Source of the DNA: Naegleria gruberi
Lineage: Eukaryota
DNA length: 64,000 nt
Direction: 5' to 3' (one strand)
NCBI GenBank assembly: GCA_000004985.1
Contig: GG738911.1
Each line of letters opens with the position of its first letter. Position 1 is the first letter of the stretch. The notes below the pieces were generated by a model. That model saw only the letters and a list, made by a program, of their open reading frames with translations. It was not told the DNA's origin and did no database searches. Positions 1,744 to 38,088 of the stretch are shown piece by piece. Made by a program: the position numbers and the translations under genes.

Positions 1744-1843
1744 TAAAAATTCTAAAACTATTTCAAAAATTATTTACTAAAAATTCTCAAAGTTTGTTTT
1801 CTATTTTTCTAGAAATAAGTTTAAAATTAATTTTTAAAAAAAA

Positions 1844-3439: not shown

Positions 3440-3577
3440 TTGTAAATTATTTATTGAAGATTATTGAAAGAACATGAGTGAATTTCAATTTTGAATTATA
3501 CATACGTTGAATTGAAAGAACTACGTTTATTGAAAGAGCAATGTGAAATCAATGTGAAATTAACGCTATGATAAATG

Positions 3578-3822
3578 GAGCTGAGAGTCATGTTACTAAC
3601 TTATGCTTCATAATTATGTGTTCTTGGAATAAACTATCATTGTTGCTCCACAAGGCTTTGCATAGGTGTCATATTTAGATATTACTGATGTCAAATTCAT
3701 AGAAACCTTGCTTTCAGTATCAGAAACGCTTTGCAAATTACTAGTTGGAGTTGACACATGAAACTAGAAACTGTAATATTAATGAGAAGATTTGTATGAA
3801 CTTGTTGGTAAATCGGTTGAAG
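3578..3822 (-). repeat. degenerate dispersed copy (~90% identical, small indels) of an internal coding segment of the receptor gene (original at about 33749..34006)
   Basis: Direct comparison of the two stretches, ggagctgag[a/g]gtcatgttactaac...tcatagaaaccttgctttcagtatcagaaacgctttgcaaattactagttggagtt...aatcggttgaag, shows co-linear near-identity over about 250 bp in the same orientation. No ORF is retained, so it is a gene fragment. Confidence 0.7.
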
Positions 3823-3957
3823 AATAACGATCTTACAGTATTAAATATAAATAATACCCAGACAATTAATTGAAAAGGTAAGCTGTATTTAAGGCTTATT
3901 TATTTTTATTTCAAGAACCCCTTACTGACAGAGTTCAGTAAATTTTTATAAGTGTAA

Positions 3958-7156: not shown

Positions 7157-7234
7157 ATGTTTAGTTTTTAATTTATATTTTCATTCTATTTCTTCTTGAA
7201 GTGCATTTTACAAAATGAACAAATTGAAAAAAAT

Positions 7235-16092: not shown

Positions 16093-16178
16093 TTTTTTTG
16101 GTTGTTGTTGCAGTTTAAAATTGAAAAGCGCGGGAATATTCAATATGAGGAACAATTTTTAAAAAAAAAATAAAAAAA

Positions 16179-17867
16179 ATGGAATCACCACTGAAGAAAA
16201 CCAAATTCAATCACCAGAAGTCTTGTGTTGTTCATCATGGGGAGGAGGAAGAGGCTGATCATCATACAATCATTTTATCGGATCATCTTTCGAATAATTT
16301 TTTAAAGCAACAATTAAGAGGAAAGACAATACGAAACTTTCAATTCCATATTTACTCTGAAAATAATGATTTGATGAATCCACAGTTTGATGAATTTGGG
16401 AGGGAAAATATATTTAGTGCTACGAGATGTGCGGAATTGGATTTATCATTTGTTGCTTTTCGAAATTTTAAAACTAATTCGATTGCAATATTCGAAAGGA
16501 ATCAATTATTGAAGATAATTAAAATGAATGATGATTTTGAATCATTTCAAGTGGATAGTACGGGAGAATTTGCTTTCTTATTGAATTCAAAAAGTGAATT
16601 GATTAAGGTGAAACTAGACGAATCTGCAAAATCTATTTGGAAAGTAAATGGTGTTTTACAATTTTGTTTGTGTAATTCAAAGAGTGAAATATACACAGTA
16701 AGCAAGTACGATAACAAAAATGTGACAGTAAGAATTTGGGAAGATTCTAATGGAATACTGAAGCGTGAATTAGTAATTAAAGATTGCAAAAAGTTGTCTG
16801 ATTTTGATTTGATAAATATGAAACGAGATGATAAGAAACGTTTACTATTTCTATTCAGAAATGATCTGAGAACAAGGTTAAACAGTAAGATCGTTTTGTA
16901 TGATGAGATAAGAAATCAGTCAATTAAGATGAAAATGACTGAAATATCTATGGTAGATTTCACAAAAGAAGGCTACTTGCTTTTTTATTCAGGCGTAGAT
17001 CTAGCATATATTTATGATGATAAGAGTGGACTTGTACTTTTGGAAATGTTATTGCCCTGTAGTTTCAATTCAGTTTCCTATTTTGAAACAATTTCGAATA
17101 CTCTCTGCCGCTTTGGTATTTGTCCAGTAGAAAAGGATAGGATTGAAATTTTATCAAATGTTGTTAACATGCCACTTAAAGAAGAAACATGCCAATCTTT
17201 ACAGAGGCTAGGATGCCAACTACCAATAAGCATTCAAGTCGATTTTGAATGGCTTGGCTTTTTCATTCCTGATTATTTACAAATGTTACTAACAACCAAC
17301 TATGGAAATATGCAATTTTGGTATCAAGATGATGAGCTAGCTGCACGATTCAAATTTATCACTACTCCACATTCTCTCAATTTTGAAGATCATGTCGTTA
17401 TAAGTGATTCAGATGATAACTTGACTGTGTCTGTAAAGAAATCAGACCTTTCAATTCATAATAATTTCAGTGGTGATTTTCCCATTTACTTGTCTTTTAT
17501 TGATTCTAAAAAGGGAATTTCGATCAAGAGTTTTACATTATCAGAATTTATTCCAAAATTGCTAATTGTAGAATGTGGTAAAAAAGTATTATCATTTACT
17601 ATTTGCTTTGCAAAGATATTTGAAGAATTATTAGAGATTGGAATAATCGATTCGAAAAGAAACATTAATCCTACCACTCTATTAGAAAGATATCAAGAAA
17701 TAATTTGTAGTTCCATGCAGGAAAATATGAATATTAATTTATTGGGAGAATACTTTGGACATTCAACTATTCGTCTTGACGAAAGAATATACAAAAAGAT
17801 GGATCTGATTGTATTGGCCAAATATTGTCCAAAGTATTTAAAATTATTTGGACAAATCATTTTTTGA
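16179..17867 (+). CDS. family X paralogue, head-to-head with 14395..16092
   Basis: MESPLKKTKF start at ATG 16179, only about 86 bp from the divergent paralogue's ATG. Conserved PLKEETCQSLQRLGCQLP, YLQMLLTTNYGNMQFWYQDDE, FPIYLSF and SEFIPKLLIVE blocks; more diverged than the others. Confidence 0.6.
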   Translation: MESPLKKTKFNHQKSCVVHHGEEEEADHHTIILSDHLSNNFLKQQLRGKTIRNFQFHIYSENNDLMNPQFDEFGRENIFSATRCAELDLSFVAFRNFKTNSIAIFERNQLLKIIKMNDDFESFQVDSTGEFAFLLNSKSELIKVKLDESAKSIWKVNGVLQFCLCNSKSEIYTVSKYDNKNVTVRIWEDSNGILKRELVIKDCKKLSDFDLINMKRDDKKRLLFLFRNDLRTRLNSKIVLYDEIRNQSIKMKMTEISMVDFTKEGYLLFYSGVDLAYIYDDKSGLVLLEMLLPCSFNSVSYFETISNTLCRFGICPVEKDRIEILSNVVNMPLKEETCQSLQRLGCQLPISIQVDFEWLGFFIPDYLQMLLTTNYGNMQFWYQDDELAARFKFITTPHSLNFEDHVVISDSDDNLTVSVKKSDLSIHNNFSGDFPIYLSFIDSKKGISIKSFTLSEFIPKLLIVECGKKVLSFTICFAKIFEELLEIGIIDSKRNINPTTLLERYQEIICSSMQENMNINLLGEYFGHSTIRLDERIYKKMDLIVLAKYCPKYLKLFGQIIF

Positions 17868-17910: not shown

Positions 17911-19740
17911 ATGCCATCACAATACAATCAAAATCCCTTTGCTAATTATCCTAATGCTATCTTGGGGACTAGGGAAAATAATTCTCACGACGAAGAGCGC
18001 GTTAAATTAATACTTCTTGAAGGTCTTGATACAAATACTAAATTAATAAGGGAAAATAATTCATTAAGCAGAAAACTTTCTGAAGGACTGGAAGCGAAAC
18101 TTACAGGAAAGAAGGTAAGAAAGGTTAAAGGAATGTTTATCAACTCGGAAAGGTTGGTTGAATATGTAAACAAACAGGTATTGTGTATGGATACATGTCA
18201 TGCTTTGAATTTATTATTTGTTGGGTTGTATAGTTTGGGATTTTATATGATTTCCATATTCGAAAATGGTGTATTGAAGAGAACGATGGAAATTTCTGAT
18301 CGTTTTGTTTCGTTCCAAGTAGATGAACAAGCAGAGTTTATTTATCTATTAAGCAATGGTAATTGTGGAAGGTTAACGAAAATGAAACTTGACGATACTT
18401 CAATAGTTTGGCATTTTAATAGCATTAACAGTTTTTGCTTGGCTGGTAATGAGATTTATGTTGGATTCTCATGCAAAACATACTTGACAGTCCATATATT
18501 AGATACTATCGATGGTTCACAAAAAAAGCAATTCACAGTTGATAAGGGAATGAATACATTCATCTTGAAACAAATGAAATATTATGAAAGAAAGCTCTAT
18601 CTTCTATTTCACAAATGTGGAACAAGGAATATTGTTCATCACTCAAATCTTTTTATGATTGTTGATTTAATAACCGAAAAGACACAACCGATTAAGCTAG
18701 AGAAGACACTTTCGACTATTGGAATTACTACAGGAGGTCTTTTGATTTTTTTTGGTTTATGGGATGTAGACGTGTATGATATTAATAGCAGGTTGCTTCT
18801 TGGTATTAATTATTCTCAATTTCAGTCGAAATGTTTTTTGTCTGCTTGTGCCAATCACTTTGATAAACATTCGAATAGATACTACATTCATCAATTTGAA
18901 GAGCAAAAGAATCAAAAAGATGAAATTATTCAAATTAGTTCAAGCATAGTATCTGAACAATTGGAAATAAGTATGAATGTTGTAGATGCGCCACTGAATT
19001 CTAAAATATGGCAAGCAATTGAAAAATTGGGAGGTCAATTACCACAATATATTCCACAAGATAAGATTAGTTACAGAAATTTAAACTTTGAAGATTCACA
19101 ATATTCCATCTATCCAGACTGTTTAGAATATTTATTAAGGGTTGATTTTGGACAAGTTGGCTTTTGGTATAAAGATAAAGAAATTACCAAGAATTTCACA
19201 TTTGAAAAGGAAGCTTATGTAGATTGGGTACGAAAGAAAAGAGATAATGAACTTTTTTTTGCTACACCATTCTTTCACAATCAAGGAATGTTTCTTTATG
19301 TAAAGAAAGAAGAGCTTTCTAATAATGATGATTTTCCAGTACATCTCCTCTATCAGACTAACGATGAAAATAACCAACATGAAGAAAAGGTAATGAGTTT
19401 GCTTGAATTCCTTTCAAGATTGAGTCTTGCTGAACATGTCATTTTAAATACTGGTTTCGAATATTTCATCAACTTTGAAATGATTTGTAAGGAATTATTG
19501 GAAAAGAACATAATTGATCCAGAAACAAGACAATTAGATATCGAATATTTAATCAAAAATTTTGAGGGAGCTAATATGTATTTGAAAATTTATTTCAACA
19601 ATTCAAAATTCCGTTTTGGAAATTCCATTTATGAAAAGCTTTTTTTGATTCTAACAGCAAACGATTGTTCAAAAAATTGCCTTATTGAAATGGAATCAGA
19701 AGTTGATTCAGATGATGATGATGAATATTGTATTTTGTAA
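17911..19740 (+). CDS. family X paralogue (divergent N-terminus)
   Basis: Conserved ERVKLILLEGLDTN, FQVDEQAEF, LDTIDGSQKKQF, APLNSKIWQAIEKLGGQLPQYIPQ, YPDCLEYLLRVDFGQVGFWYKDKEI, FPVHLLYQ, EFLSRLSLAEHV and YFINFEMICKELLEKNIIDPETR blocks. Confidence 0.6.
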   Translation: MPSQYNQNPFANYPNAILGTRENNSHDEERVKLILLEGLDTNTKLIRENNSLSRKLSEGLEAKLTGKKVRKVKGMFINSERLVEYVNKQVLCMDTCHALNLLFVGLYSLGFYMISIFENGVLKRTMEISDRFVSFQVDEQAEFIYLLSNGNCGRLTKMKLDDTSIVWHFNSINSFCLAGNEIYVGFSCKTYLTVHILDTIDGSQKKQFTVDKGMNTFILKQMKYYERKLYLLFHKCGTRNIVHHSNLFMIVDLITEKTQPIKLEKTLSTIGITTGGLLIFFGLWDVDVYDINSRLLLGINYSQFQSKCFLSACANHFDKHSNRYYIHQFEEQKNQKDEIIQISSSIVSEQLEISMNVVDAPLNSKIWQAIEKLGGQLPQYIPQDKISYRNLNFEDSQYSIYPDCLEYLLRVDFGQVGFWYKDKEITKNFTFEKEAYVDWVRKKRDNELFFATPFFHNQGMFLYVKKEELSNNDDFPVHLLYQTNDENNQHEEKVMSLLEFLSRLSLAEHVILNTGFEYFINFEMICKELLEKNIIDPETRQLDIEYLIKNFEGANMYLKIYFNNSKFRFGNSIYEKLFLILTANDCSKNCLIEMESEVDSDDDDEYCIL

Positions 19741-20471: not shown

Positions 20472-23400
20472 ATGCCATTTCAAACGATTCTTTTGACACT
20501 TTTCAAAATGGTAAAAGCGTTGCTTTTGAACATGAATTGTGGACTCCATCACTTTAAAAAAATGAAATCAGTTCTATCGTTTGAGCTTGGACTCTTACTG
20601 CTGATATTGGCATGTTTGATGAACTCTCAGTTTGTCAACACTCAAGCTATCAAATCTCGCATTGTTTCAACATTGATGAATAAGAAGGATGTGAATCGTC
20701 CACAAGATTTAATTGAAATGGGGCAAGTGTATGCAACTACATTTCGTAAAGGAAGTAATGGAGAAGAAGATTCTTTGTTGTTTATTGATTCAGGAAATTT
20801 GAAAATGTATGGATTGGTCAGCAAGAATTTCACAACTCTCTATTCATCTATTTATTACGTATCTTTTCAAATGCCTTTGAATCCATTGAACAACGACGAA
20901 TTGGTATTCCATCATAACGCTCAATTGTTAAAGTTGAATATCAAAACTTTGACAACTGAAAGATTGGCAGGTACAGGTGTATTTGGTTACAATGGAGACA
21001 ATATCAACGCTACATCCGCCCTCATTCAACCAGTTCAAGCCATTAATTACAATTCAAATAATGAGTTGGTCTTTGCAGGTAAGTTTTCATGTTAGAAATT
21101 GTTTTTGATTCACACAACAACAGACAGTTATAGAATCAGAAAAATTCTATTGAATGGTACCATTGTAACCATTGCTGGTCTTTCAACAGCATGTGATGGA
21201 GTGACTAGTGTTTTAAGCAATATTCCAGCAACATCAGCTTCTATTTGTTCTGTAACATCAATCCTTTTTGTGAAATTTGCAGGTTATCCAGAAGAGTGGC
21301 TCTATTTCAGAGATCAAGTTGGTGTGAAACGTATTGATCCAACCACTGGAGTATTATCCATTGTTTTTGTGTACTCTTCCTACTATGCCTTTTATTTGAA
21401 TCCTGTTCAATCTGACAGATCTAGGTTGATTCCAGATGATTTATGGCTTGGATATGGCTCGTATGCTGTTGAAATATTGAAAAATAATGGCCTTGGTCAG
21501 GTTATTATTGGTGGGGGTCAAAATCAGACCTTTTTAGTGGCAGACGCAAAGTCTGTTTCCTTGTCCACAATAACAAGTTTTGCCTACGATCAAGAAAAGA
21601 ACGAATTGTACATTGGTACTTATGGATCGGTTGTTAAATATGTTAGATCAGATAGAACTATTAGACATATTGTTGGTTGTGCATCAAGTAATTGCTTGTT
21701 GAGAGGAGTCAATATTGATGCTCAATATGCTAGTATGTCTTCCGCTAAACCAAGTGTATTTTTTGATAATGGTCAATTGTACTTAGCAGATAGCATAATC
21801 ATTAAGGGTATTGATTTGAAGAGTAGATTAATCAAGAATTATATTTCCCATGAATGTAAGTAGATGAGAAATCTTCATGTTCTAACAATATTATTTCAGC
21901 TATGGATTCTATCAATTACATGACCTACAAGAATGGTTTAATCTATTTACATGAGGGTTCTTACTCATCCACCTTGTTGAAATTTAATCAAACTTCTTCA
22001 GTTGTGGCTAAAATTGCTGGATATTATTATTACTCAGAAGGTGGTTTAGCAATGAGTAATTCTGTCGATTCACTTTCCTCCTTTTCCTTCAACTCAAAGA
22101 ATGAGATTATCATGTCAATTGGCGATCAAATTAAGACTATCAGAAATGATAGAATATACACAATTGTACCAAGCTCTTCATATTATGCATCTGCAGACAA
22201 TGCATCATTCGCAGAGGCAAGACTTTATGGACCTTCTCAATTAATTTCTCATCCAACAAGGGATAATGAAATGTATTTCATGGAAACAAGCAGAAATATC
22301 ATTAGAAAGATGGATTTTACAACTAGTAGAGTATTGACTGTTGCTGGTAAAAGTAATGGATTTGCAGGAGATGGATATTTGGCCACCGAGAGTGCCATTA
22401 AAGTTAACTGTTTTACTATGGATGAATACGGAAATATTTACTTTACTGATGGTGCCAAATTGAGAAAGATTGACCAATCAGATTCTAGAATTTCCACATT
22501 AACTTCGTCTACTTCGGGCTACAGTTCAGATGGTACTGATCTATCGTCTCTTTCGCTCTCAGCATCTAGCTGTGTCCTCTCTGTCAAGAATAATGTCATT
22601 TATTTTGTTGAGGATAAATCTGTTAGAAAGATTCATCCAACATGTGAAAGTGGTTACATTCTTAATACCAACAGCAATGGATGTGTTGCTTGTCCTTCAG
22701 GATTGACCAACGATGAATATTTTTATGAATGTGTTCCTCAATGCTTTGGAAAGATCAATCCAAATGCTTGCTCCAAGAACGGTAAATGTACATCTAACAA
22801 TGTCTGTACATGTAATCTAGGATGGACAGGAGCTGAATGTTCTCAGACTACCTGCTTTGGAATTACCAACTCTGATTCTAATGTTTGCTCAGGAAGAGGT
22901 TCATGTCAAGGATTAGACACATGTAAATGTTTGGATGGTTTCAGAGGAAGAAATTGTGAATTTACAGCTTGGAAAGATGGTGATGTGACTGTTCAAACAG
23001 ATCAGGATGAATATGTGTATCGTAGTACAGAGCCAATGGTCTATGTCAAATTCAATACTACTTATTCGAGATCAGTTACATTGAAAATGGAACAGAGATC
23101 ATCTTATTATAACATAATTAGAAGTACGATTTATAAGAATTTGACAGCTGCCGAGTTGACCACTGTTTATTCTCAAAAATTCATTAATTTCAACCTCCAA
23201 TATGGTCACATATTTGACGTTACAGTATTTGACGCTGAGACTGGTGTGCAATTATCAAACCCAGCTTCCAAAGATGTCAGTGTTATTACTTGTGCCACTT
23301 GTCAAGTTGCCAATCTAATTCCTCAATATTTACAAATGGCCTACAACAATACTAGACCAAATCCTGGAGATACAGTCAGTGTTAAGATTAGCATGTTGCA

Positions 23401-24670
23401 ATATTTCTATTATGTGTATACATTTGATATCACCGTTACGTTTAACAATGTCACCTATTACAAGCAAGCTATTTCAACAGTGGGTCAAGAAGTTACAATT
23501 TATATCCCTCCAGTTTTCGAAAATGGTACCTTTAGAACCTATGTTTCAGTATATGGCCAACCATATTACAAAAATTCAACCTATTTGATGCTTAGTGCTT
23601 CTACTAGTGAACTGGCAGTTTACAATCAAACTCTATTTGTTGAGGACAGTTGGATTAGTTCTAGTTTCAGTGTTGATAAGATCCCTTACAAGAGTACCTA
23701 CACTACTAGTACATTGGATATGAAAATTGCTCATATTGACTTCACATCTCTATTTAAATACAAGCAATTGACTGCCAATGTGAGCATATTCTTGATTGAT
23801 GAATTTGGAAATAGAAAAAATCAAATCTATGCTAATTCTCTTCAATTCTTGGGCAGTAATCCAGTTCTGTCAATTCAAGTTCCAAAAACCGCTTTCAGCA
23901 TTCGTTCTGATTGGACTTTGGATGGATTTATTACCATTCTCAATAATGGAACAATAGTTTCGAATGTGAAAAAGACAATCAAACCAATTACTTTTTATTG
24001 TCCGTCCTCTTACTTTGGACCTCAATGTGATTTGACAATTTGCAACGGAGTTTATTCCAATTCTACAAATGTTTGCTCTGGAAATGGTATTTGTTCTTAT
24101 TCCTATTGTTATTGTAATCAAAATTACAAGGGATCAAATTGTGAAATGCCAGCATTGAAATCCTCTTCTGTCATTACAAAACTCGATGCACCTTACAAAG
24201 TCAAAGGTTCACTTACATTATCCAACTTGACAATTGCTATTAATGCAAGTGATTCTGAATTCTTCTCCTATTATAGAAACAAATCGTTGATTTGCTATGT
24301 CTATGCTCAATCAACAACCTCAAATTATATTGGATATATTACATTGGACAAAACTAATGATTTTACTGTTTCCGTTAAACTTCCAGATACATTACTCCTT
24401 GGAACCTATACATTCAGACTCAACATTCAATCAAGTAGTGTAATAATCTTGGACACTGGCTCTTTTTATTATTCAACCATTTCGTATACAGTTGGTTCTC
24501 AACCGTTACCTCCTGCAGTGGTGAGCAACAATAACCAACCAAGCAAACCAAAAGTTTCGACTAATGGACCTAACAGAGAAACTACATTGAGTGAGGGTAC
24601 ACCTAACTCAGTAATGATTGGAATTAACTTGTGGATTTTACTCGTATTGACATTCTTAATAAATTATTAA
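20472..24670 (+). CDS. secreted protein with NHL-like beta-propeller repeats, tenascin-type EGF repeats and a C-terminal hydrophobic tail (GPI or TM). Three exons: 20472..21078, 21124..21855, 21900..24670.
   Basis: Signal-like hydrophobic N-terminus. Repeats GVFGYNGDNINATSALIQP...ELVFADSYRIRKILLNGTIVTIAG fit the NHL consensus. EGF modules C.NGKCTSNNVCTCNLGWTGAECS, CSGRGSCQGLDTCKCLDGFRGRNCE and CSGNGICSYSYCYCNQNYKGSNCE. C-terminus IGINLWILLVLTFLINY. Two very short introns (45 and 44 nt), both GTAAGT...CAG; each contains an in-frame TAG, and splicing joins the three track ORFs in frame. Confidence 0.65.
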
Positions 24671-24821: not shown

Positions 24822-26501
24822 ATGAAACGAAATCCACATCCAAACCGTGACCGTTTTGAGGAAGAACCATTATCAAAGTCAATGTACCAGCCTCCTCAAC
24901 AAGAAACAATTCATTCCGAAAAGAGTGAAACAGAAGAAGAATATACAATTAGAAAATTTAATGAAAATTTTCATAATTTTGAGCTTGAGTCTATTGTTGG
25001 CGCTCAAGTAAAGTTTGTTAAGGCTGGTGCCTCCTCTGCTCTTTATTATTTTGTTAGCAAACCAAATGAATTGTTTCAGGTTAATAATTTCCCAGAATTG
25101 AACGCATTTGCCTCCCAATGTGCCGAACATTACCAAGGAGGTATTATTAAGTGTTTTTATCATGTTTTTATAACTGGATTCGTGAGAACAGGAAAGACAA
25201 CCACGGCTCGATATCTTTTCCCCTATCTCCATTCTATTCATTGCTGTAGGAGATTTAATTACATTGGCTATGAGGTTCAATATCTTGATATACAAGATTT
25301 TCCAAAGCACGAACAAGAAGAAGAATATTATTACGCTAATAGAATTATTAGAAGCTTTGTTGGTGAAGGAGCAACTGTAGTAGACTGTATGCAAGATTCA
25401 ACTCAATACAATCCCATCACTGAGTATTTGGAAAAAAGAAGCGATAAGATGGTATACTTTGTCTTGGACGAAATTCAACTATTATCTCCGACCACTTTGA
25501 ACTATCTCAAGAAGGTATTTAAATCACCTACTCTAAAGAGTTCTTCAAATTTCCTTAGTATTTGGACAGGAAGTACCCAATCACTTCTATTCAGAAAGTT
25601 GAGAGAAGTACTTCCATATGGATTCTCATTTTCGGATAATGAGATGACCTACAACATTCCACACTCGAGTGCAACTGCAAATTTAAGGGAGGTTGCCATA
25701 TTCCAAAACTACATTATGAAAAGAAAATTTGTCGACACACAAGTTCTAAGAACCATCAAGGATTCATTAGAGGTGCACCACTGCAGTTATGTTGACCAAA
25801 TTATTTCTCAACGCAAAACCAAGACTCTCCAACAATCCATTTCTCATCTCATTCAACAAATCTTCTCCATTTATGATAGAGATATTGGCAATATTGTTAA
25901 AGGACTAACGAGAGAGGAAGCTTGGATAATAATCAAAACCAAAGCTGTTCCAGCCTATATAACGAGTATAGCTCTGTGTGGCTCTGGGATTACTGATGGT
26001 TCTATGTTTGTAAAATTCAACCGAGAGACCCAAAAGTATGAGCTTAGAGACTCATTGCTCTGTTCTTATATCATGTTTAGATGGGATAGTCTTTGTAGCT
26101 CAATGAGAGCTGCTGATGTTGAGTATCATTTTCACTTATTGTTACCATTCCAATTTTTGGGTGAGTCCATCAATTTAATTGAATCATCACTCATTGAAAC
26201 TCTTGGAATGGCTGATCATGATCACAAACAGTTTGCTGCGGTACTTAATAATGGATTAATTGACAATTCTATTCAAAACAAAATTGAAATAATAGAGGAT
26301 GAGGAAAAACTTGTCAAAACAATCATCAAGGCAATCAGACATATTTCAAGTCAATCTTCTGATTGTAAAACCCTCTATCAAGAAATTGTAAAATATTGGT
26401 GCAACAATGAACCAAGAAATTTCATCAGAATTGCTGAGAAAATCAGGGAAGTGGTTGTTATTACAAACTGGAACCATGAATCAAAATTTGTAAAATATTA
26501 A
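24822..26501 (+). CDS. P-loop NTPase (AAA+ / archaeal-ATPase-like Walker A and B)
   Basis: Walker A ITGFVRTGKTTTARYL (G-x4-GKT). Walker B-like MVYFVLDEIQLL (hhhhDE.Q, as in arch-ATPase and ORC/Cdc6-type AAA+). First ATG at 24822, MKRNPHP. No introns detected. Confidence 0.6.
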   Translation: MKRNPHPNRDRFEEEPLSKSMYQPPQQETIHSEKSETEEEYTIRKFNENFHNFELESIVGAQVKFVKAGASSALYYFVSKPNELFQVNNFPELNAFASQCAEHYQGGIIKCFYHVFITGFVRTGKTTTARYLFPYLHSIHCCRRFNYIGYEVQYLDIQDFPKHEQEEEYYYANRIIRSFVGEGATVVDCMQDSTQYNPITEYLEKRSDKMVYFVLDEIQLLSPTTLNYLKKVFKSPTLKSSSNFLSIWTGSTQSLLFRKLREVLPYGFSFSDNEMTYNIPHSSATANLREVAIFQNYIMKRKFVDTQVLRTIKDSLEVHHCSYVDQIISQRKTKTLQQSISHLIQQIFSIYDRDIGNIVKGLTREEAWIIIKTKAVPAYITSIALCGSGITDGSMFVKFNRETQKYELRDSLLCSYIMFRWDSLCSSMRAADVEYHFHLLLPFQFLGESINLIESSLIETLGMADHDHKQFAAVLNNGLIDNSIQNKIEIIEDEEKLVKTIIKAIRHISSQSSDCKTLYQEIVKYWCNNEPRNFIRIAEKIREVVVITNWNHESKFVKY

Positions 26502-26553
26502 AAAGCAAAATGTTCCACACAAGTTCAATAGTTTACAAAAAACATCAAAAAAA

Positions 26554-28179
26554 ATGCCACAACAAGAAATCTTCTCCTCTCTCCCGCTCGCTCTTATTCT
26601 CCGACTTGAACGAGCAGAGCCTAAACTTGCCAAGTTTATTCTCTCATGTGATGACAATTTTTCTAGTCAATTATTGGAACACCGTAGAAAATATAAACCC
26701 TCTCATGTAGTTCTCCTATTAAAATATCATCATCGTCATGAGTATAGTTATGGAGGAGTGGCCATTTTGGAGTTGAATAGAATTGGAGTTGAATTAAAAT
26801 GTAAAAGTAATGAAACAAACAAGATGGATGATCAAGGAAGATTGATTAGAATTAATGATGAAAATGGAAAGCCACTTGGATTGTTTGCTGATGAGGGAAG
26901 TGTGAATGAAACTCATCAAGTGGTGATTAGTGAGTGGAATGATAGGGAAATGATTTTTTCACAATCGATGGATTTGAAGGAAAGAAAATTTTTGAAATTC
27001 AAGTTGAATCAGAAAAAGGTGGAAGAATCGTTTGTGGAAAGGGTTCATGTTGAAGTTTCTCATCAACTTTCGCATAGCCTTTATCGTGCTGATCATCCAT
27101 TGAATGTTCCTGTAATTGGTAAAGCTCAGAATGTTCTTTTAACACATCTGGCATTTGATAGATTTTCTCAAAAGAGTAATTTAGCAATTTTCAACATTGA
27201 AAAGAATGAAAATCATTCATTGAAAATTAGTCAAAAATTCTCCACCGAGGAAGACACCCACGCTTTCTATATTGCCCTCATGGAGAGTAATCTAGGTCAG
27301 AAATATATTCTAAAATATGCCTTTCAAAAACCTTCCTATTCATCCATTGGTTATGTGAGTTTGAATAACACCAAAAAGTTCTCATATACTCCAATACGAG
27401 TGGATGGTTTTGAGGGAATATTTCAGAAGAATACCTGCAAGATGAGCCAAATTTTGTGTCATACTCAATTGAGTGAAGGAAAGTATCTATTCATGACATA
27501 TTCGAAATCATCCAAAAGAATCAGTTCTGATTTCCAACATTATTTCACAAATGAAATTGTTTGGATATTAGTAGATGTCAATGAGAAGAGAACCAAAAGA
27601 GTTTATCCAAGAGTTTATAACATTGCAGCCAATACAACAACAGGTCACGAAAGAACATTTCTAAATCAGTCGAATCAAGACGAAACCAGCTTTCAAACAG
27701 TGCAAAAGAAGAAGAGAGGTGGAAAAATTCAAAAGAAATTCCACACTGATGAAGAACATTTATATTTGGACGGTGATTTGAATGGTGGCTATTCAGATTC
27801 TTCTCTTTTAAAGAAAATTAATGGAATTACAAATTCTTCAATTGACCAAACATCCACATCCGTCATGATTCCAATCTTGAAAGAAGATATCACCAATAAT
27901 GATGTAACCATGAGAGCGTTTAGACCATTTTTCAGTAATCCAGATATTTTCCAAGTATTAGTTTTCTTTTCCAAGGTTGTGGAAGATGGTGTTGATTTCA
28001 ATCCTCATTTTGGTAAAATGTTTAGTTACTTCTTCCAGTTCAAGAATGAAACTAAGGTAAAGGTAAGAAAGGTTGGAAGAAGATTCTCAGATGTTAATAT
28101 TATCACATGCTCAACAAGCAAAGTAGGAACAGCTGGTGGTAGTAATAGACAGTTTAGTAAAGTGTTGGCCTTTCAATGA
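26554..28179 (+). CDS. hypothetical protein (weak F-box-like N-terminus LPLALILRL...LAKF), 52 bp downstream of the NTPase gene
   Basis: Long ORF with normal codon usage and an ATG in good context. No recognisable domain by eye. Confidence 0.45.
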   Translation: MPQQEIFSSLPLALILRLERAEPKLAKFILSCDDNFSSQLLEHRRKYKPSHVVLLLKYHHRHEYSYGGVAILELNRIGVELKCKSNETNKMDDQGRLIRINDENGKPLGLFADEGSVNETHQVVISEWNDREMIFSQSMDLKERKFLKFKLNQKKVEESFVERVHVEVSHQLSHSLYRADHPLNVPVIGKAQNVLLTHLAFDRFSQKSNLAIFNIEKNENHSLKISQKFSTEEDTHAFYIALMESNLGQKYILKYAFQKPSYSSIGYVSLNNTKKFSYTPIRVDGFEGIFQKNTCKMSQILCHTQLSEGKYLFMTYSKSSKRISSDFQHYFTNEIVWILVDVNEKRTKRVYPRVYNIAANTTTGHERTFLNQSNQDETSFQTVQKKKRGGKIQKKFHTDEEHLYLDGDLNGGYSDSSLLKKINGITNSSIDQTSTSVMIPILKEDITNNDVTMRAFRPFFSNPDIFQVLVFFSKVVEDGVDFNPHFGKMFSYFFQFKNETKVKVRKVGRRFSDVNIITCSTSKVGTAGGSNRQFSKVLAFQ

Positions 28180-28251: not shown

Positions 28252-29769
28252 TTAAGAGGACTCTGTAAATTGCCAATGATAATACTTTTGCAAAATATCT
28301 TGAGGTTTTCTAAATTGACATTCATCAACAAGGTGAAGAAAATATTTCACAAATTGAGGAATATTCTTAATAATCATATCATTGTCAAAGTTTACCATCT
28401 GTGCATAATAAACTCCATAAGTTTGTTCCAATAAACTTGCTTGTTCCCAGAAACCTTGATAGAAAAATCCACCACTCGGCAATATTTCCAAAACTGCCAA
28501 TTTTCTTGGTGCGAATCTAGAATTGTAAAAAGCTGCTCCATGTGGTCCAAATATTGCCTTTACATTGGCAAAGAATTTTACAATTTCACTCAAATTGGCG
28601 AAATCTCTGCTATCAAATGTCACCAATTCTTCATTCAAATTTCGTTTCAGCAATTCCACTTTTAAATGTTCCAAAACAGCATCCTCATTAAGTATCATTC
28701 TTCCTCCATTTTGACTGTCGCCATTACTTCTTGTAAAGTAGACAATTTTCTTTCTATCTTTGAATGGAATATCGAATGACAAGTTCAATTGAAAAAGTAT
28801 TTCATTTGAAATTCGTTGAGTGGTGAATGGATGAACGAGTGGACTTCTGCAGGAGTAGATTACTTTCTTGGCATAAATTGCACGTTTATGGAAATGATTG
28901 TGTGCAATAATTTGATAAATTTCATTGACAAATTGGTTGGTAGGCTCTTTTCCAGCAAGTATTGAAGATTTTCTTCCTGCTGTCTCAGAATTTTCCAATG
29001 TTGCTTGTCCCCATACTACAGTAACTCTATCCAGAAAGTGTTGGAAACTGAACGAATCTGGACTTGTTGAAATAATCAAAGAATCGACCGATTCATATGT
29101 TTGCAACGGAGTTGGATTCGTTTTTAGAAATTTTAAATGAGAATTCGATTGACCAACACAATTATTCTCACTCCATTCATCACTGTCAACAATTGGATCA
29201 ATATAAACATTATTAAAAACTAAAATTTGACCATTGATTGATGGGTAAATTGCCCATTCATTATCTGGACTCCATTTCATTAGAATAGAATCTCTAGATT
29301 GTTCCATCCATATTTTCTTTTGCTTTTCATTGAAAAATTTAGGAGCTTTGATTTTGAATGAGTGGTAGATTAGTTCAATTCCTTTTTCTATATTCGAATC
29401 TTGATTTTGTAAACATGGAGCTGAGAATTTGTACATTCCACTTTGACAATCCTCAATTTTAATTGGCATCCACTGCGAAATGGTCAATTCTTGATAATCT
29501 ACATCTTTTTCCAGCTCAAAATTCGTTTCTTCTAGTTTCGTATTCCACAGAAATTCATCACTTTCATAAAATAGGTCAGCATGTTTTGTCGAGTTGGATG
29601 GTGTTGGTGTAATCTTTCGTAATATCCTCAACAAAATCATTGTTGTCAACATGAACATCACAACACATATTAAAACTGCCAATTTAATTCTTCCATAACT
29701 TTTTGATGGACTGCTGACAGGTACATTGTAGATTGGAAGAGAGTAATGGTGAAGAGCTTGCTGTGCCAT
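28252..29769 (-). CDS. glycosyltransferase family 61 (DUF563/EOGT-XylT-like), type II membrane protein
   Basis: N-terminal signal anchor LAVLICVVMFMLTTMILLRIL. C-terminal GT61 hallmarks R.ILNEDAVLEHL...FDSRDF...VKFFANVKAIFGPHGAAFYNSRFAPRKLAVLEILP..GG.F...YGVYY. Confidence 0.7.
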   Translation of the reverse strand: MAQQALHHYSLPIYNVPVSSPSKSYGRIKLAVLICVVMFMLTTMILLRILRKITPTPSNSTKHADLFYESDEFLWNTKLEETNFELEKDVDYQELTISQWMPIKIEDCQSGMYKFSAPCLQNQDSNIEKGIELIYHSFKIKAPKFFNEKQKKIWMEQSRDSILMKWSPDNEWAIYPSINGQILVFNNVYIDPIVDSDEWSENNCVGQSNSHLKFLKTNPTPLQTYESVDSLIISTSPDSFSFQHFLDRVTVVWGQATLENSETAGRKSSILAGKEPTNQFVNEIYQIIAHNHFHKRAIYAKKVIYSCRSPLVHPFTTQRISNEILFQLNLSFDIPFKDRKKIVYFTRSNGDSQNGGRMILNEDAVLEHLKVELLKRNLNEELVTFDSRDFANLSEIVKFFANVKAIFGPHGAAFYNSRFAPRKLAVLEILPSGGFFYQGFWEQASLLEQTYGVYYAQMVNFDNDMIIKNIPQFVKYFLHLVDECQFRKPQDILQKYYHWQFTESS

Positions 29770-30197: not shown

Positions 30198-31553
30198 TTA
30201 CAAATTCGATTGAATAAATTCACCAAATTTTCTAATGAAAATTTCAGGATTTCTTAATAAGCCAATAGCTCTGTTTCTTCCCTTTTCGGTCATAATGTCC
30301 GCAGCTTTTTGTCCTTTAACCTCAATGATTTCCTTCTTTCCAATTAGACCATTAATACTTCCCAAACTCAATTCAAATTTTCCTGATTTTTCCTTATTTT
30401 TTAACATTGAGGCAGTTGAGGAAAATTGTGGAGCTACCTTTTTGATTTGCTGAATGAAATTTGACATTTTGACAATATTTGTACCAACAGTGATACCTTC
30501 TCTGACTGCTGAACCTGCCAATTTTTCGTATGGAAGATCTGTCACATCACCAAGTGAGAAAATATTTGGATGGTTGACAGTTTGATAGAAATCATTAACT
30601 TGAATGAAACCTTGAGAATTTCTTGCAATATGACTTCCTTCCAACCATTCAGTATTTGGAATCATGCCTCCACACCAAAATATCATACTTGCTTTTGGAA
30701 GTTCAATAACTTGTTCACTAGTCAATTCTGCATTTGGAATATTCGGTTTTAAAACAATTTCCTTCTTAATCAATGGATTAGTTTCCTCCCCAGACGAAAC
30801 CAATTGAGAAACATCCTTATAAAAAGCTCTCTTTCCCATAAAAACTTCAACTCCATTCTTCACCAAATGGTTATAGATATAATTGTGTGCAGTTTCAGAA
30901 TTTGATCGATCTCTCAACAACTTTCTACTATGAACGAGAGTTATTTTGAATGGTTCCAATCCGTGCTTTCCTCTCCATTGATTGACATCAATTAATTCAC
31001 CTGCCAATTGAATTCCCAAAGCTCCTCCTCCAACAATGACAACATGATCATTTTCCTTAGAGGTAATCTTGTCATAGAATTGATGAAATTCGTGTAATCT
31101 TGATTGAGGAGTGACAGATTCAATCTTTTCAATGTTTGCCTTAATATAGTCTGTCTTGTATCTGCAGCCATTTGCCAAGATTAGGTAATCGTATTCGATA
31201 GTTTCTTCTCCCTTAATGGAATTTCCATCCAATTGTTGAATTGTAATCTTGGAATGCTCGGTATCGAGTTTGGAAGCTTGGGAATGACTAATCATTTTGA
31301 CAGAATATCCATTTCTCTTGTCAAAAGTCTTTTCAAGTTCATCCAACAAGACATGTGAATTTTCATGATGATATTCTTGTGGATTGACCATATAACGTAA
31401 AGTAAAGATAGATGACTCGGTGAAATTCTTCTTTTCAATCAATGTAATGTTAAATGTTTGACTTTTGGCAACAAAATGTGAGGTCAAAGTTGATAGAACT
31501 GATAATCCAGCAACTCCTCCTCCAACAATAACTACTCTTGGTTGTGTACTCAT
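30198..31553 (-). CDS. AIF-like (AIFM2/FSP1/AMID-type) FAD-dependent pyridine nucleotide-disulfide oxidoreductase
   Basis: Two Rossmann dinucleotide-binding motifs, PRVVIVGGGVAGLS and DHVVIVGGGALGIQLAGEL. C-terminal IFSLGDVTDLPYEKLAGSAVREG aligns with the AIFM2 pattern AIGDCADV..PKMAYLAG. Probable start is MSTQPRVV; the track start is upstream. Confidence 0.8.
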   Translation of the reverse strand: MSTQPRVVIVGGGVAGLSVLSTLTSHFVAKSQTFNITLIEKKNFTESSIFTLRYMVNPQEYHHENSHVLLDELEKTFDKRNGYSVKMISHSQASKLDTEHSKITIQQLDGNSIKGEETIEYDYLILANGCRYKTDYIKANIEKIESVTPQSRLHEFHQFYDKITSKENDHVVIVGGGALGIQLAGELIDVNQWRGKHGLEPFKITLVHSRKLLRDRSNSETAHNYIYNHLVKNGVEVFMGKRAFYKDVSQLVSSGEETNPLIKKEIVLKPNIPNAELTSEQVIELPKASMIFWCGGMIPNTEWLEGSHIARNSQGFIQVNDFYQTVNHPNIFSLGDVTDLPYEKLAGSAVREGITVGTNIVKMSNFIQQIKKVAPQFSSTASMLKNKEKSGKFELSLGSINGLIGKKEIIEVKGQKAADIMTEKGRNRAIGLLRNPEIFIRKFGEFIQSNL

Positions 31554-31877
31554 GATGATGATGTATTCTTGATGTTTGAATATTTGTTTTTGAATTGGAA
31601 ACAATGTTGAGCTATGTGAAAGTGCGTTCTTAAAGAATTTAACATAATGGAGGAGGAATTTGCGCATATTTAAAGTTATTACCCCAATAATAACAATAGT
31701 GGGCCAAGGAGATCGTCATTATTAAATCACGCAATTCCTTGGTTACAAGGTTCACTCTTGTTTTAAATATCCTTCATTTTGTCCAATCGTCTTTTTTGTT
31801 ATAATTTCAAAAATGGTAATTTTCAAACTCTGTAATTTTAATGAGTATTCTTTGATGATGAAAATTGTGGAATGATA

Positions 31878-34800
31878 TTAAATACCATAGACAACGTTGG
31901 CCTTCTCAATGATTTGCATTTGAACATCTCTCACTGCCTTGAAATTAACATAATCTGGTGTGAAAACAAATCGAGAGAAGGTATCTCCCAAATTCATAAC
32001 CACCTGTCTCATCATTAATTCAAAACAATCCTTGACCATGCTATTTTCAATTCCAAGTTTTGATAGGGAATTTAAATCCAATAGCTCACAATTTGATTCG
32101 TCCAATTTCTTACATTTTTCATAGAGTTGAATGAATGCAGTTCTACTCTTTGATGGAATGTTAACTTCCATTTCTGCTCCAGTTTTGATGTACTTTTGGT
32201 AGATTCGGTCAGCAAAGAAGACTAATCCTCCAAGATTTTCACCAGATACCACATCTGTACTTGCTTTAATGTCAGAGAAGAGGAATAAATTTTCAGAGCT
32301 GAATTCCTTTTCACAAAAGTTTGCAAATAATTCATATCCTTCCTCAGATTCCAAAGTATTGTAAAGTTCTTGATTCATAATTTCATCGTTTTGCTTCTTT
32401 TGTTCTTCCTTTTTGGTTCTACGTTGTCTGAACTTGTAGACAAGAGCAACAATGAGTGCATAACCACCAAATACTAAAATATAGGAAATGACATAGAGTA
32501 CTTCAAAGATGAAGGAAATTGAATCAAATGTCAAGGCAAGTTTGAACATGGCCAAACTCTCAAATCTGTAAGACAAGCTGCTCAATCCAATAACTTGATT
32601 CAAGATGAGTAAAATGAAGGAAATAATATAAATGAACATTTCCATTCTGAAATAGAGAGGTCCATCCATTGAGGTAAACCAATGGAATGCTGTTAATAAA
32701 ATATTCTTATTGAGCTTCTTCTTTTCATTGATGTTTTCAGCATTATCAAGACTGAAAGTACTGGTAGGTTGTGAAAAGTTTACAGCTCTTCTTCTATTCT
32801 TCTTTTGATCAACTTCTTTCTTTGATGAGAGAATCATGTCAAGGATGGCGACAGCTGTAATAATCACACCAAATGTCAAAATACAAACTGTATAAGAAAC
32901 TGAAACAATGTAGGTATACTGTAATGAATCTAGAACTCCAGTTCTTCTCAAAATGACCCAAATAACCCAATAGACAACATTGACAGCAGCAAATATACCA
33001 ATCAATGAATAGAATAACACTTGTGAGGTTGCATACTTCAATGCTTTCAAAATTGTTGTACTTTGAGCTTGCGTTCTATTATCAGAGAGTTTCTTGTAGA
33101 GTAGTTTCATGAATTGGAATCTAAAAACTTGCATGACGTAACAGAAAATGGCTGTTAAATTGAGGGTGTTTACAATAATCATGACAATATTTGCAATGAT
33201 ATTGGCAGCAGCATCTCCACTTTCCCACATTTGACTATTTGCAGAATTCAATTGATCCACTAGAACAGATCTTTGTACAATATAAATCAATGTACATTCC
33301 ACAATTAATGCTATCAATCCAACATAAGGAGTAAGCAATCTAGAGCTCACAGGTTGAGACTTTCTCAAAACAATCAATCCAATCAAAATTGCACTTGCTG
33401 CAATCAAATAAATAATACCAAATGATATTTGGGCATAGTATAATGATGAAACTTGATCCTTGAGTTGAACGGTAAATGTTGTTGTCTTGGATTCAAGGAA
33501 AGTTGTAAACATGGTTGTGTGAGAACAAGCACATTCAATTGAGTTAGATGAAACTCTATGCAATGAACATCCATAACTGCTCCACATTTTGAGTTTCTCA
33601 TCCCAATACTTGCAATGATACGTACTGTTGGTAACAGTCGAATTGGAGATTATTGAGCTTGGAATAGTGGCAGCATTGAATGAAAGAATAAGAGGTGAAT
33701 CTAAATTATCCAAAACCAAGACATCTGTCTTTTTCATGAATTTGAAATCAGTAACAGAGGAGCTGAGGGTCATGTTACTAACTGAAGCATCATAATTTGT
33801 GTTCTTTGAATAAACTATCATTGTTGCTCCACAAGTCATTGAATAGGTGCCATATTTGGACATCACTGATGTCAAATTCATAGAAACCTTGCTTTCAGTA
33901 TCAGAAACGCTTTGCAAATTACTAGTTGGAGTTGGCACATTGAAACTAGAAACTGTAATATTAATGAGAGAAGATTTGTATGAACTTGTTGGTAAATCGG
34001 TTGAAGTAGAACTAACAACAGTTGGGATAGTTCCATAATAAATCAGAACAGTGACAAGACTAGCTGTCGATTTGGTTTTTTCAGAATCATATGAAGTAGA
34101 GAAGCAGTTTGAAATAACTTGAATTGTTTTGGAGATATCTGCACTGGAGAGGGATGATTTCACATAGCCATACAGAGCAAGTTCACTCAAATAAATGTCT
34201 GTCAAATTTGAAACAAATGAATCCACTTTGTTGATGACTAGACTGACGGTATCAGCTGTTAGTGTTTCATTATTGGATGTTAGTGTTTCCAAGCTTGATA
34301 AAGATGATGAAGGGTTCTTTGGATCAATTACTACATTAGAAATGAGGGCAGAGACCAATGATGACGATGCTGAACTTGTTGTAAAGGTTTGATCTACAGA
34401 GGCACCTAATAGCGACTCTCCACTCAAAGATTTTACAACTTCAATGTATTGCTCTTGAGTTCCATTAAATGGAGAGACTGTTACATTTGCTGATGCTTCA
34501 GTTTCCACATTTCCGAGGGCGTCCTTGACAAAGACAACCAGTGAGATTGTTTCTGTTGTTTCTAAAATACTTCTTGATTTGGTGGAAGAGCTTTCCGACC
34601 TAATGTAAGGTAAATAAGATGAGAAGGTAGTGTTGAGACTGTATTCAGTCAATCTAACAGACTCTGCCTTTGATTTATCATAATAACCAAATGCATATTT
34701 GAGTGGCAATAGTTCAGGTGATGTTGCAACCCATTCAGAAACCTGAATTGTAAACTTGTCATTCATTGAAATACCAGAGATTGGAGAAACGCTAACAAGA

Positions 34801-37800
34801 TTGGAAACACGTGTTGGAGGACTTGCAGAGGAGATAATTTGAATTTGAACAGAAGAGCTAATGTTTTGCTGCTTGCTATTGATAACTGTGAATGTGAACA
34901 AGACAGTCTCATTCAAATAGTTGGATGGAATGCTTGCTTGAATTGGAACTGATGGAGAAAATGATAATAGGTTAGTATTATCATATTTGGCCAAGACTGA
35001 ACCTGACCTTTTGTAAGAGAATACTCCTGCACTAACTTTCCATTCATAGGAAACCAAAGTTGAGCAATTTTTTCCACAACCTAAAAAGTATCTAATAGTA
35101 GTTGTGTTCAGAGTGATACTGTTAATAACAGTTGAAATGGTTTGATCTTGAGTACCTGAAACTAGAACAGATGGTAAACCAAAGCTTCCCAAAGTTGGCT
35201 CATTCAATTCATACTTGACTACTAATTTGAATTGTTGCAGGTTGGATTTTCTGCTTTGGAATGGTTGAATATTAGCAATGGATGCATTTGCAATGAAAGT
35301 GTAATTGCCTGCTTGAGTAACATCAGTTAATGTAGAGTTGATTAACAAACGATTGGATTCCACATAGAAAACCACATTTTGTCCATCACATTCAACACAT
35401 GACCAGGTGTAGGAAATATTTGGACTTTGGCTTAATACTTGATCTATTAATTGAATTTCCACACTGACAGTCTTGTTATCAAATTCCAAATAGACAACCT
35501 CTTCATATTTTGTAATGTTAATTTGGAATGGACTAATATTCACTGAACAATCCTTATTGGTGAATCCTTCAACACAAGAACAGTAATTTGGTGATACACA
35601 TTGTCCCTTTCCTGAGCAAACACTCGATTCGTTGAACAAGGTACCAAAGCAATTGTGCAATTCACATGTTTGGCCATAATATCCTGGTTGACATGTGCAG
35701 TTATCTGGAACAAAGCATGAACCATGACTTGAGCAAACGTTGGTATCATTAAAAAGAATTCCAAAGCAATTATGATTTGAACAATCAAATGAAAAATATC
35801 CTTCTTGGCATGAACAGTTATTTGGACTCAGACAAGTTCCATGTTTGAAACAAACATTTGAAGAATTCTTATGAACTCCAAAGCAATCATGTTCAGAACA
35901 TTCAGGTCCATAATACCCAGCTTCACAGAAGCAATTATTTGGAGATAAACATTGTCCATGAGTGGAACAAACATTAGAATTGTTAAATAAAGTGCCATAG
36001 CATTGGTGAGCTTCACACTGATATCCATAATATCCTGGTTGACATGTACAATTATTTGGAACTGGACATGAACCATGGCCACTACAAACATTCATTGTAT
36101 CATTGAATAAATGGCCATAACATTCATGGTTGGAACAATCAAATGAAAAATAACCGGTCTGACATGAACAATTATTTGGACTCTAACAAGTTCCATGCTG
36201 GAAGCACACATTCGAAGAATTCTTATGAACTCCAAAGCAATCATGTTCAGAACATTCAGCTCCATAATATCCAGCTTCACAGAAGCAATTATTTGGAGAT
36301 AAACATTGTCCATGAGTGGAACAAACACTTGAACTATTGAATAGAGTACCATAACAGTTGTGCAATTCACATGTTTGCCCATAATATCCAGCTTGACATG
36401 TGCAGATATTTGGTGAGTCACATGAACCGTGAGATGAGCAAGTACTACTATTTAAATGTTCCACTCCAAAGCAATTGTACAATCCACAATCAGATCCATA
36501 GAAAGGAACTAAACAACTACAATTATTATAGGCTGTACATGATCCTCGTCCTGAACAGACAGTTGAGGAATTCCTAGAAGCACCATAACAATCATAAATT
36601 TCACAATTCTATTTTCATCACATGTACAATTATTGAATGAATGACATTGACCGTGTGAGGAACAAATATTTGGATTGTTTGAGAGAACTCCATTACAAAT
36701 ATTAATTTCACAGAATTTGCCAGTATGTTGCTCATCACACTGACAAGTATCGAATGCTGTACAATTACCAAATCCAGTACACACATTTGTTTCATTTTTC
36801 AATATTCCACTACATTCGAATAATTCACAATCTTCTCCATAATAACCCTCTTGACAGGTACAATTTTCTGGTGAAGAACATGATCCATGTCCTGAACAAA
36901 CCATTGAAGAATTATTGATAATTCCATTACACATATAATTTTCACAATTATCTCCAAAGTATAACTCTGGACAAGTGCAATTATTCTTTGAATCACATGA
37001 TCCTACTCGAGAGCATACATTTGGTTGATCGAATCTAATTCCACCACAGTCATAGTACTGGCATTCAGATCCATATCTTCCTGCTTGACAATTACTACAT
37101 GTATTTGGTGAAGAACATGTTCCAAATCCACTGCAAACATTTGGATCACTTGGTGCAAGGCCATTACAATAATACAATTCACAAAATGTTCCTGAATATC
37201 CTGTTTGACATGAGCAAGTATTTGGACCAGTACATGTTCCACGACCATTGCAAACAGTACCAACTTGAGAATAGAGAATACTATTGCAATAGTAATTTGA
37301 ACACGTACTTCCTGAATATCCAGAATAGCATGAGCAACTATCTCGAGCATTACATGATCCATGTCCACTACAAGCACTCGATCCATATAATCCATAACAG
37401 AGATATTCATTACACTGAGAACCAGACCAAGTGTAGGTCAGTGAATTTCCAAAATACTGATTGGCTGTCCAGCAAACTTCCTTCTGGGCACCATAGAGTA
37501 CCAAATTACCATCTGATATTATCATTGATGATGTTGATGTTGATGGAATAAACAACTCACTCCATCATAACAATTCAATAGAAACTTACCTGATTGCATG
37601 ACTAATCTGAAAGGGGCTGTACCAGAGGTGCATGCAGAAGAAATTGTCTTTAAAACACCTCCCTGGTCTCGTATCTCAAGAGTGCCATCCAATGACAATA
37701 CTAAATTATACGGAGCTGTTCCTTGTCCATTAGTATCAGATGCCCAATAGGCAACCAATCCAGGTTTATAAAGCACCAAATTGCCATCCACTTGTTGTTT

Positions 37801-38088
37801 CAATTGGTAAATTCCATTCGATGAGTAAATAGAATTTGATTGATAGAGGTTGTTGGTTCCACCCGATGAATACAGAGTGTTACCACTTGTTGAATCCACA
37901 CAATAGCAATTATTTGACCCAGCACAGAAGCCATGTCCACCGCATGAGTTCAAATCTGTGGCCGAATAGCCATAACATGTATTGACAGCCAAAACTGAGA
38001 GTTGTTGTTGATGGTTGTGAAAACATGTCTGTACCACAAATGCAAAGACAAAATAGAGAAATAATGTGGAAGGTGCTTGGTGTTGCAT
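31878..38088 (-). CDS. giant receptor: signal peptide, bulb-type (mannose-binding) lectin domain, more than 25 tenascin-type EGF repeats, S/T-rich mucin-like stalk, GPS/GAIN-like motif, seven TM helices and a C-terminal RGS domain. The reading frame is disrupted in several places in this assembly.
   Basis: N-terminal MQHQAPSTLFLYFVFAFVVQTC. B-lectin motifs QQVDGNLVLY...AYWASDT and LSLDGTLEIRD. EGF units CSxHGxCxxPNNCTCQxGYYGxxCExHxCYG repeated many times. GPS-like C.YWDEKLKMWSSYGCSL......CACSHTTMFTTFL. Seven hydrophobic helices between about aa 890 and 1210 of the main ORF. RGS motif EGYELFANFCEKEFSSENLFLFSDIKA. The frame joins across about 37484-37560 by a short intron (two alternative acceptors), across about 36600 by a shift consistent with a 10-bp direct-repeat deletion, and across an in-frame TAG at 36183..36185. 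Confidence 0.7.
35550..36480 (-). repeat. recent tandem duplication (unit about 390 bp, 2-2.5 copies) of a four-EGF-module block inside the receptor gene
   Basis: Near-identical nucleotide stretches, for example gaactccaaagcaatcatgttcagaacattcag...ccagcttcacagaagcaattatttggagataaacattgtccatgagtggaacaaaca, occur at about 35880 and 36230. The protein blocks CSTHGQCLSPNNCFCEAGYYG[P/A]ECSEHDCFGVHKNSSNVCF[K/Q]HGTC are almost identical. Confidence 0.6.

Follow-up and report, generated by a model that had tools for sequence, protein, structure and literature searches.

Two closely spaced intronless genes of Naegleria gruberi, a heterolobosean AAA+ ATPase gene and an orphan-family gene, as probable neighbours by chance

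We analysed a stretch of 64,000 nucleotides from Naegleria gruberi (assembly GCA_000004985.1, contig GG738911.1; this whole stretch is referred to below as the window), and in it two adjacent genes on the plus strand. Gene 1 (NAEGRDRAFT_74127, XP_002670808) occupies positions 24822..26501, from the ATG at 24822 to the stop codon ending at 26501, and encodes an AAA+ ATPase of 559 amino acids (aa). Gene 2 (NAEGRDRAFT_53266, XP_002670809), which belongs to an orphan family, extends over 26554..28179 and encodes 541 aa between the ATG at 26554 and the stop codon ending at 28179. Each is a single uninterrupted open reading frame (ORF), and between them lies an A-rich spacer of 52 bp (26502..26553) that ends in aaaaaaaATG. 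The arrangement of two intronless genes on the same strand, 52 bp apart, thus corresponds to that described in a first-pass annotation of this DNA, which was made from the letters and the ORF translations only. That annotation regarded the tight spacing and the lack of introns as reminiscent of a STAND-type sensor module or of a horizontally acquired cassette. Our results point in another direction. Judging from sequence comparisons, the two are quite probably separate, independently transcribed nuclear genes of N. gruberi, brought side by side by the compactness of the genome and not by a joint function. Both are fast-evolving, lineage-specific and already deposited, although uncharacterised, and we regard them as neighbours by chance.

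The records of both genes are located on a 261-kb nuclear scaffold of N. gruberi and are 100% identical to the ORFs; for gene 1 the identity to XP_002670808, which carries the name 'predicted protein', covers the full length. The deposited model of gene 2, also a 'predicted protein', is 451 aa long and begins at M91 (nt 26824), which would widen the intergenic gap to 322 bp. The 90 N-terminal codons missing from this model (26554-26823, plus strand) are conserved in the closest homologue, a metagenome protein referred to here as P0003, with 27 of 76 aligned residues identical. In a tblastn search residue 1 of P0003 aligned to nt 26554, and the ATG at this position is preceded by a run of A residues (aaaaaaaATG), a feature shared by numerous likely start codons of the window. 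The N-terminal conservation, the tblastn start and the A-run together favour the 541-aa form of gene 2 and the 52-bp gap, so that this reading is probably correct and the public model probably lacks its first 90 codons, which is a mildly new observation.

The spacing itself turned out to be ordinary. Between ORFs of 150 aa or more the window has 29 gaps, 10 of which measure 116 bp or less; the same-strand gaps include those of 43, 52, 87, 97, 100, 114 and 116 bp, and one convergent gap is only 8 bp long. At two annotated loci of N. lovaniensis (L001 and L003) the gaps are 72-106 bp. The N. lovaniensis genome was reported to be 77% coding, with introns in only 47% of genes (53% intronless) (PMC6125883). 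Introns are also found next to our pair: upstream of gene 1, the region 20472-24670 (plus strand) holds an EGF/teneurin-like ORF of 922 aa that probably represents only the final exon of a larger gene, and two short GTAAGT...CAG introns (approximately 21080-21124 and 21857-21900) would join the ORFs 20472-21095, 21099-21863 and 21902-24670. Weak, sub-threshold matches to TEN_NHL were obtained for two of these three EGF/NHL ORFs. Since about half of Naegleria genes are intronless and introns occur beside the pair, the intronless state is common and cannot be taken as a mark of foreign origin.

We also examined whether the two genes stay together elsewhere. Relatives of gene 1 were inspected at five other places (seven fetched loci: L003, L004/L005, L006/L007, L008 and L009) with flanks of roughly 1-10 kb to either side, as set by the contig ends; the loci of the N. 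gruberi paralogues P0005 (NAEGRDRAFT_47503) and P0006 were not part of this set. At none of the five places did the fetched flanks contain a relative of gene 2. In N. lovaniensis (L003, the locus of the relative P0007), the position 77 bp downstream is taken by a KNTC1-like gene encoding 2301 aa. Conversely, the two loci of gene 2 relatives contained no relative of gene 1; MCM5 and EXOSC1 are the neighbours in L001, and in L002 the relative lies next to a DNA ligase gene. P0003 and the gene 1 relative P0008 come from one metagenome sample, where they lie on separate contigs, each with other neighbours. The first-pass annotation had named orthologues that are never linked as an argument against its own proposal; within the limits of these data the relatives are unlinked, and this counts against coupling.

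The composition of both genes is native. The G+C content at third codon positions (GC3) is 0.305 for gene 1 and 0.303 for gene 2, compared with a window mean of 0.300 (standard deviation 0.043), and the codon-usage distances of 0.060 and 0.078, respectively, are both below the window mean of 0.095. No donor was indicated either: an exhaustive HMMER scan (filter-only) with gene 1 across 1.84 billion representative proteins returned no prokaryotic or viral protein at E <= 0.001, and motif scans of viral, bacterial and archaeal genome collections yielded no relatives. The bacterial affinities that had been suggested as a possible outcome were therefore not found. As the tests of spacing, linkage, composition and donors were all negative, the proposed coupling is not supported. 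For scans of compact protist genomes this may serve as a calibration, in that tight spacing and a lack of introns in Naegleria do not amount to an operon-like unit or a transferred cassette.

Several points nevertheless weigh against the reading of two independent genes. No synteny was visible between the window and any of the related loci. Low synteny with N. gruberi was noted in the N. lovaniensis genome paper (PMC6125883), and another study omitted N. gruberi from its synteny analysis because of its greater distance (PMC9928731). Because N. gruberi is distant from the remaining sequenced Naegleria species and synteny is nil, unlinked relatives elsewhere would still be compatible with a young, species-specific association of the two genes, for which proximity is the sole positive argument. 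In addition, judged by their identities, P0007 and P0008 (27-29%) and P0003 (39%) may be paralogues instead of true orthologues. The 52-bp gap also leaves little room for a separate promoter, and read-through or overlapping transcription is possible.

If such an association were functional, the pair could form a two-gene module specific to N. gruberi, in which a STAND/NLR-like switch and a downstream sensor or effector are co-regulated through the 52-bp spacer. We consider this improbable: the pair is adjacent at none of the five gene 1 places and at neither gene 2 locus, the spacing is ordinary, gene 1 carries no sensor repeats and gene 2 no effector or sensor domain. Moreover, to our knowledge polycistronic transcription is not known in Naegleria. 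Independent transcription of the two genes therefore remains our preferred reading, and below we describe each of them separately.

The P-loop motifs assigned to gene 1 in the first-pass annotation, Walker A GFVRTGKTT and Walker B VLDEIQ, are present and backed by Pfam. Gene 1 matched AAA_14 (PF13173) with 29.8 bits (E 6.8e-7), marginally above the curated cut-off of 27, and AAA_22 (PF13401) with 25.5 bits (E 1.7e-5); given these scores, the P-loop is not just a motif that arose by chance. Among the 11 members of the gene 1 family, AAA_22 was matched by eight and AAA_14 by seven. The Pfam scan of gene 1 listed no match to PF01637, NB-ARC, NACHT or AAA_16; one paralogue, P0007, scored 32.1 bits on AAA_16, just below the cut-off of 32.6. 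In prokaryotes AAA_14 is commonly accompanied by DUF4143, which gave no match in gene 1 at E <= 0.1. Searches of the PDB with the gene 1 protein and with its profile gave no significant sequence match, and scans of NCBIfam and of PADLOC (defence systems) gave no meaningful one.

The HMMER scan recovered nine relatives of gene 1 at E <= 0.001. Those with a species name belong to N. gruberi, N. lovaniensis, N. fowleri and Willaertia magna, and the remainder are encoded on metagenome or read-archive contigs with an amoeba-like gene content. Gene 1 thus appears to belong to a multi-paralogue family confined, as far as sequence searches reach, to Heterolobosea (Naegleria, Willaertia and amoeba-like metagenome contigs). 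A scan of metagenomes with a sub-family profile added no confirmed relatives. The family alignment is conserved in the P-loop, in hhhLDEIQ, TGSTQ, NG[FL]S...IP, IYDRD and [FL]RD, and some paralogues have an additional N-terminal part of approximately 200-320 residues for which no Pfam match was obtained. One N. gruberi paralogue, P0006 (NAEGRDRAFT_61937, on another scaffold of 1.0 Mb), is 197 aa long; it is about 75% identical to residues 1-180 of gene 1, then diverges and stops, and probably represents a truncated copy of gene 1 of recent origin, or a pseudogene of it. In the literature library searched, neither gene 1 nor gene 2 was mentioned by locus tag or accession. The gene 1 family could be of interest for lineage-specific innovation or for amoebal immunity.

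To describe the fold of gene 1 we used an AlphaFold2 model built with the family alignment (mean predicted local distance difference test score, pLDDT, 69; predicted template modelling score, pTM, 0.72). The model begins with an alpha/beta domain of no known family (aa 38-104; 24933..25133, plus strand, as all features of gene 1), in which the pLDDT is approximately 62-92 over the block of aa 31-110 and above 80 for aa 41-100; an 'NNFPE' stretch within it is conserved in the family. It is followed by the AAA+ nucleotide-binding core (approximately aa 110-280; 25149..25661). Here Walker A (aa 119-127; 25176..25202) has the core RTGKT, and this core or a variant of it (GTGKT, KSGKT, HTGKT) is found in all family members that cover the region. 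In Walker B (aa 214-219; 25461..25478) the final residue, Q219, is nearly invariant in the family. The strand after Walker B (E244-249 in the model) carries IWTGSTQ (aa 247-253; 25560..25580), of which TGSTQ is conserved, and this is a candidate sensor 1. The helical lid (aa 285-375; 25674..25946), defined from the family alignment and the model, includes the conserved motif IYDRD (aa 350-354; 25869-25883). With regard to the arginine finger (box VII) and the sensor-2 arginine of AAA+ proteins, the family has no conserved arginine directly after the TGSTQ strand; the only nearly invariant arginine is R353 of IYDRD, a candidate sensor-2-type arginine. Further downstream, the predicted secondary structure indicates a winged-helix-like module composed of a helix, a beta-hairpin and a helix (aa 378-421; 25953..26084), and the protein ends with a helical region modelled at low confidence (aa 435-556; 26124..26489), in which the Pfam scan detected no repeats.

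Gene 1 has the hallmarks of an AAA+ protein: a RecA-like alpha/beta core that carries a Walker A of the form GxxxxGK[ST] and a Walker B of the form hhhhDE, and a helical lid after it. A Foldseek search with the model placed the archaeal 'Walker-type' ATPases PABY2304 (PDB 2qen) and SSO1545 (PDB 2fna) of the arch-ATPase group first, followed by archaeal Orc/Cdc6 and by CED-4/NLR proteins; the top fold matches are AAA+ plus winged-helix proteins. Against BFVD, a library of viral structures, only generic AAA+ matches were obtained. The description of gene 1 as AAA+/arch-ATPase-like was therefore right at the level of the fold. PABY2304 and SSO1545 are the closest in fold, their C-terminal winged helix included, but the identity of gene 1 to these archaeal structures is only 10-16% and no significant sequence match exists. 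Unlike them, gene 1 is extended by an alpha/beta domain at the N-terminus and by approximately 120 aa of helical tail, and it is eukaryotic and restricted to Heterolobosea. The placement of this heterolobosean AAA+ family beside the archaeal Walker-type ATPases, at fold level, is mildly new.

As both Walker motifs are intact, the gene 1 protein would most likely bind and hydrolyse ATP. By analogy with the archaeal Walker-type ATPases PABY2304/SSO1545, archaeal Orc/Cdc6 and CED-4/NLR proteins, its probable role is that of a nucleotide-dependent switch or an assembly factor. The same comparison suggests that the lid and the winged-helix part may engage a partner, either DNA or a protein.

Gene 2 belongs to a family of only four proteins, even when a profile search was included: gene 2 itself, an N. 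gruberi paralogue (26% identical), one protein of N. lovaniensis and one from a metagenome (P0003, 39%). The family has thus apparently been seen only in Naegleria and in one metagenome, and a profile scan of metagenomes provided no confirmed relatives. Invariant columns of the four-sequence alignment mark 27595..27957 (plus strand, as are its motifs) as the best-conserved part. This part contains KRVYPRVY (27595-27618), a basic patch (QKKKRGGKIQKK), DGDLNGGYSD (27769-27798) and FRPFFSNPDIFQV (27919-27957; FRPFxSNPDLFQV as the family pattern). The basic patch, in the strongly conserved C-terminal half of the protein, may be a nuclear-targeting signal and would then suggest a nuclear location. 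The protein is predicted to be beta-rich.

That gene 2 has no recognisable domain was confirmed, as no credible match was found in Pfam, NCBIfam, PADLOC or, with the protein and with the profile, the PDB. The weak F-box-like N-terminus that had been proposed for it was not recovered: none of the four family members matched an F-box model even at E <= 10. One Pfam hit of gene 2, Centro_C10orf90 (E 6e-4; 19.1 bits with a cut-off of 25), was judged spurious, as it covered 50 residues in a K/E-rich stretch and appeared in one of the four members. A structure model computed from the four-sequence alignment had a pLDDT of 36 and was unusable.

The relation of gene 1 to other nucleotide-driven systems allows further explanations of what it does. 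In the broadest of these, the heterolobosean AAA+ family would be a eukaryotic branch, so far undescribed, of the arch-ATPase / ORC-Cdc6 / STAND assemblage, working as a nucleotide-gated sensor with separately encoded partners, either nearby proteins with RNI-type leucine-rich repeats (LRRs) or, in N. gruberi, gene 2, for example in the defence of amoebae against giant viruses or intracellular bacteria; we give this idea only a small chance. Gene 1 does share the NOD-like fold of the STAND NTPases (CED-4/Apaf-1, plant and animal NLRs, Avs), with similarity to CED-4 and NLRs, but Pfam detected neither sensor repeats (LRR, WD40 or TPR) nor a recognisable effector domain in it. Its membership in the STAND group, as far as sequence can tell, is unproven.

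The second explanation is that gene 1 is a divergent paralogue of the replication initiators ORC/Cdc6. The shared architecture of an AAA+ domain, a lid and a C-terminal winged helix could be taken in its favour. However, the sequence relationship to Orc1/Cdc6 is not significant and the resemblance is confined to the fold: with the family profile, Cdc6 and ORC5 were reached in the PDB at E-values of 0.056 and 0.46, neither of them significant, and the Pfam ORC/Cdc6 models matched neither gene 1 nor its family. The HMMER matches included no ORC/Cdc6 protein from any other eukaryote, and Foldseek put non-replicative archaeal ATPases on top. Orc1/Cdc6 is universal and single-copy, whereas the gene 1 family is lineage-specific, with several paralogues, varied N-terminal extensions and an occurrence in Heterolobosea only. 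We therefore find this explanation very unlikely, and gene 1 did not resolve as a standard ORC/Cdc6 paralogue; had it done so, this would have refuted the proposal of the first-pass annotation by that annotation's own terms.

The neighbourhoods of the gene 1 family suggested another candidate partner. At four of six places (the window and the five others) a gene for an RNI-type LRR protein (Pfam LRR_6) lies within approximately 11 kb of a family member: at 13063-14199 (minus strand) in the window, at 6691-7749 (minus strand) in L003, at 1897-3657 (minus strand) in L004 or 285-2045 (minus strand) in L005, the last two being metagenome contigs in which it and the NTPase gene are adjacent and divergently oriented, and at 15424-16407 (plus strand) in L008. 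The LRR proteins of L008 and of the window are 39% identical (E 1e-61). Their alignment continues beyond the start of the ORF at 14025, which points to an exon further upstream. This could mean that the gene 1 family and separately encoded LRR proteins make up a split NLR-like sensor, with the LRR gene and not gene 2 as the partner. However, both the spacing and the relative orientation are variable, the LRR gene being adjacent in one case and up to 10.8 kb away, beyond several other genes, in others; no LRR_6-type gene was found at L006/L007 or L009, and by a rough estimate four of six is only marginally unusual. A split sensor is thus hardly to be expected; the proximity to LRR genes, mildly new in itself, is a weak tendency that may be due to chance.

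Horizontal transfer of both genes as a cassette, with a bacterial, archaeal or giant-virus donor, is the least credible explanation and can practically be dismissed: AAA_14 and arch-ATPase-type domains are mostly prokaryotic, the top fold matches are archaeal and both genes are intronless, but GC3 and codon usage are indistinguishable from those of the neighbours, the HMMER and motif scans described above gave no prokaryotic or viral relatives, the archaeal structures are so distant in sequence, and the family occurs across several heterolobosean genera, which indicates a long residence in the lineage.

Other features of the window were recorded as well. Downstream of the pair the genes are ordinary ones: a GT61-family glycosyltransferase gene (28252-29769, minus strand; Pfam E 6.9e-19) is convergent with gene 2 at a gap of 72 bp, followed by a gene for a pyridine nucleotide-disulphide oxidoreductase (30198-31667, minus strand; Pfam E 1.1e-35). 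The next region, 31878-38088 (minus strand), is a very long EGF-repeat region, in which an ORF of 1405 aa and those upstream of it have numerous internal EGF-like repeat units in common, with adjacent copies up to 77% identical. A fragment of 70 residues at 3617-3823 (minus strand) is 77% identical to part of the 1405-aa EGF protein. Runs of N (assembly gaps) are present at 3300-3368 and 56171-56385, and the ORFs that reach them (1844-3439 and 54918-56393 / 56099-59875) are unreliable there.

Four paralogous genes encoding approximately 530-610 aa, with 26-29% mutual identity, form a local cluster at 1844-3439 (plus strand), 14395-16092 (minus strand), 16179-17867 (plus strand) and 17911-19740 (plus strand). 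The three that were scanned (all but 1844-3439) had no credible Pfam match. They seem to be a family specific to the lineage that has grown by local duplication, and weaker similarity to it was noticed at 42763-43368 and 44952-45527.

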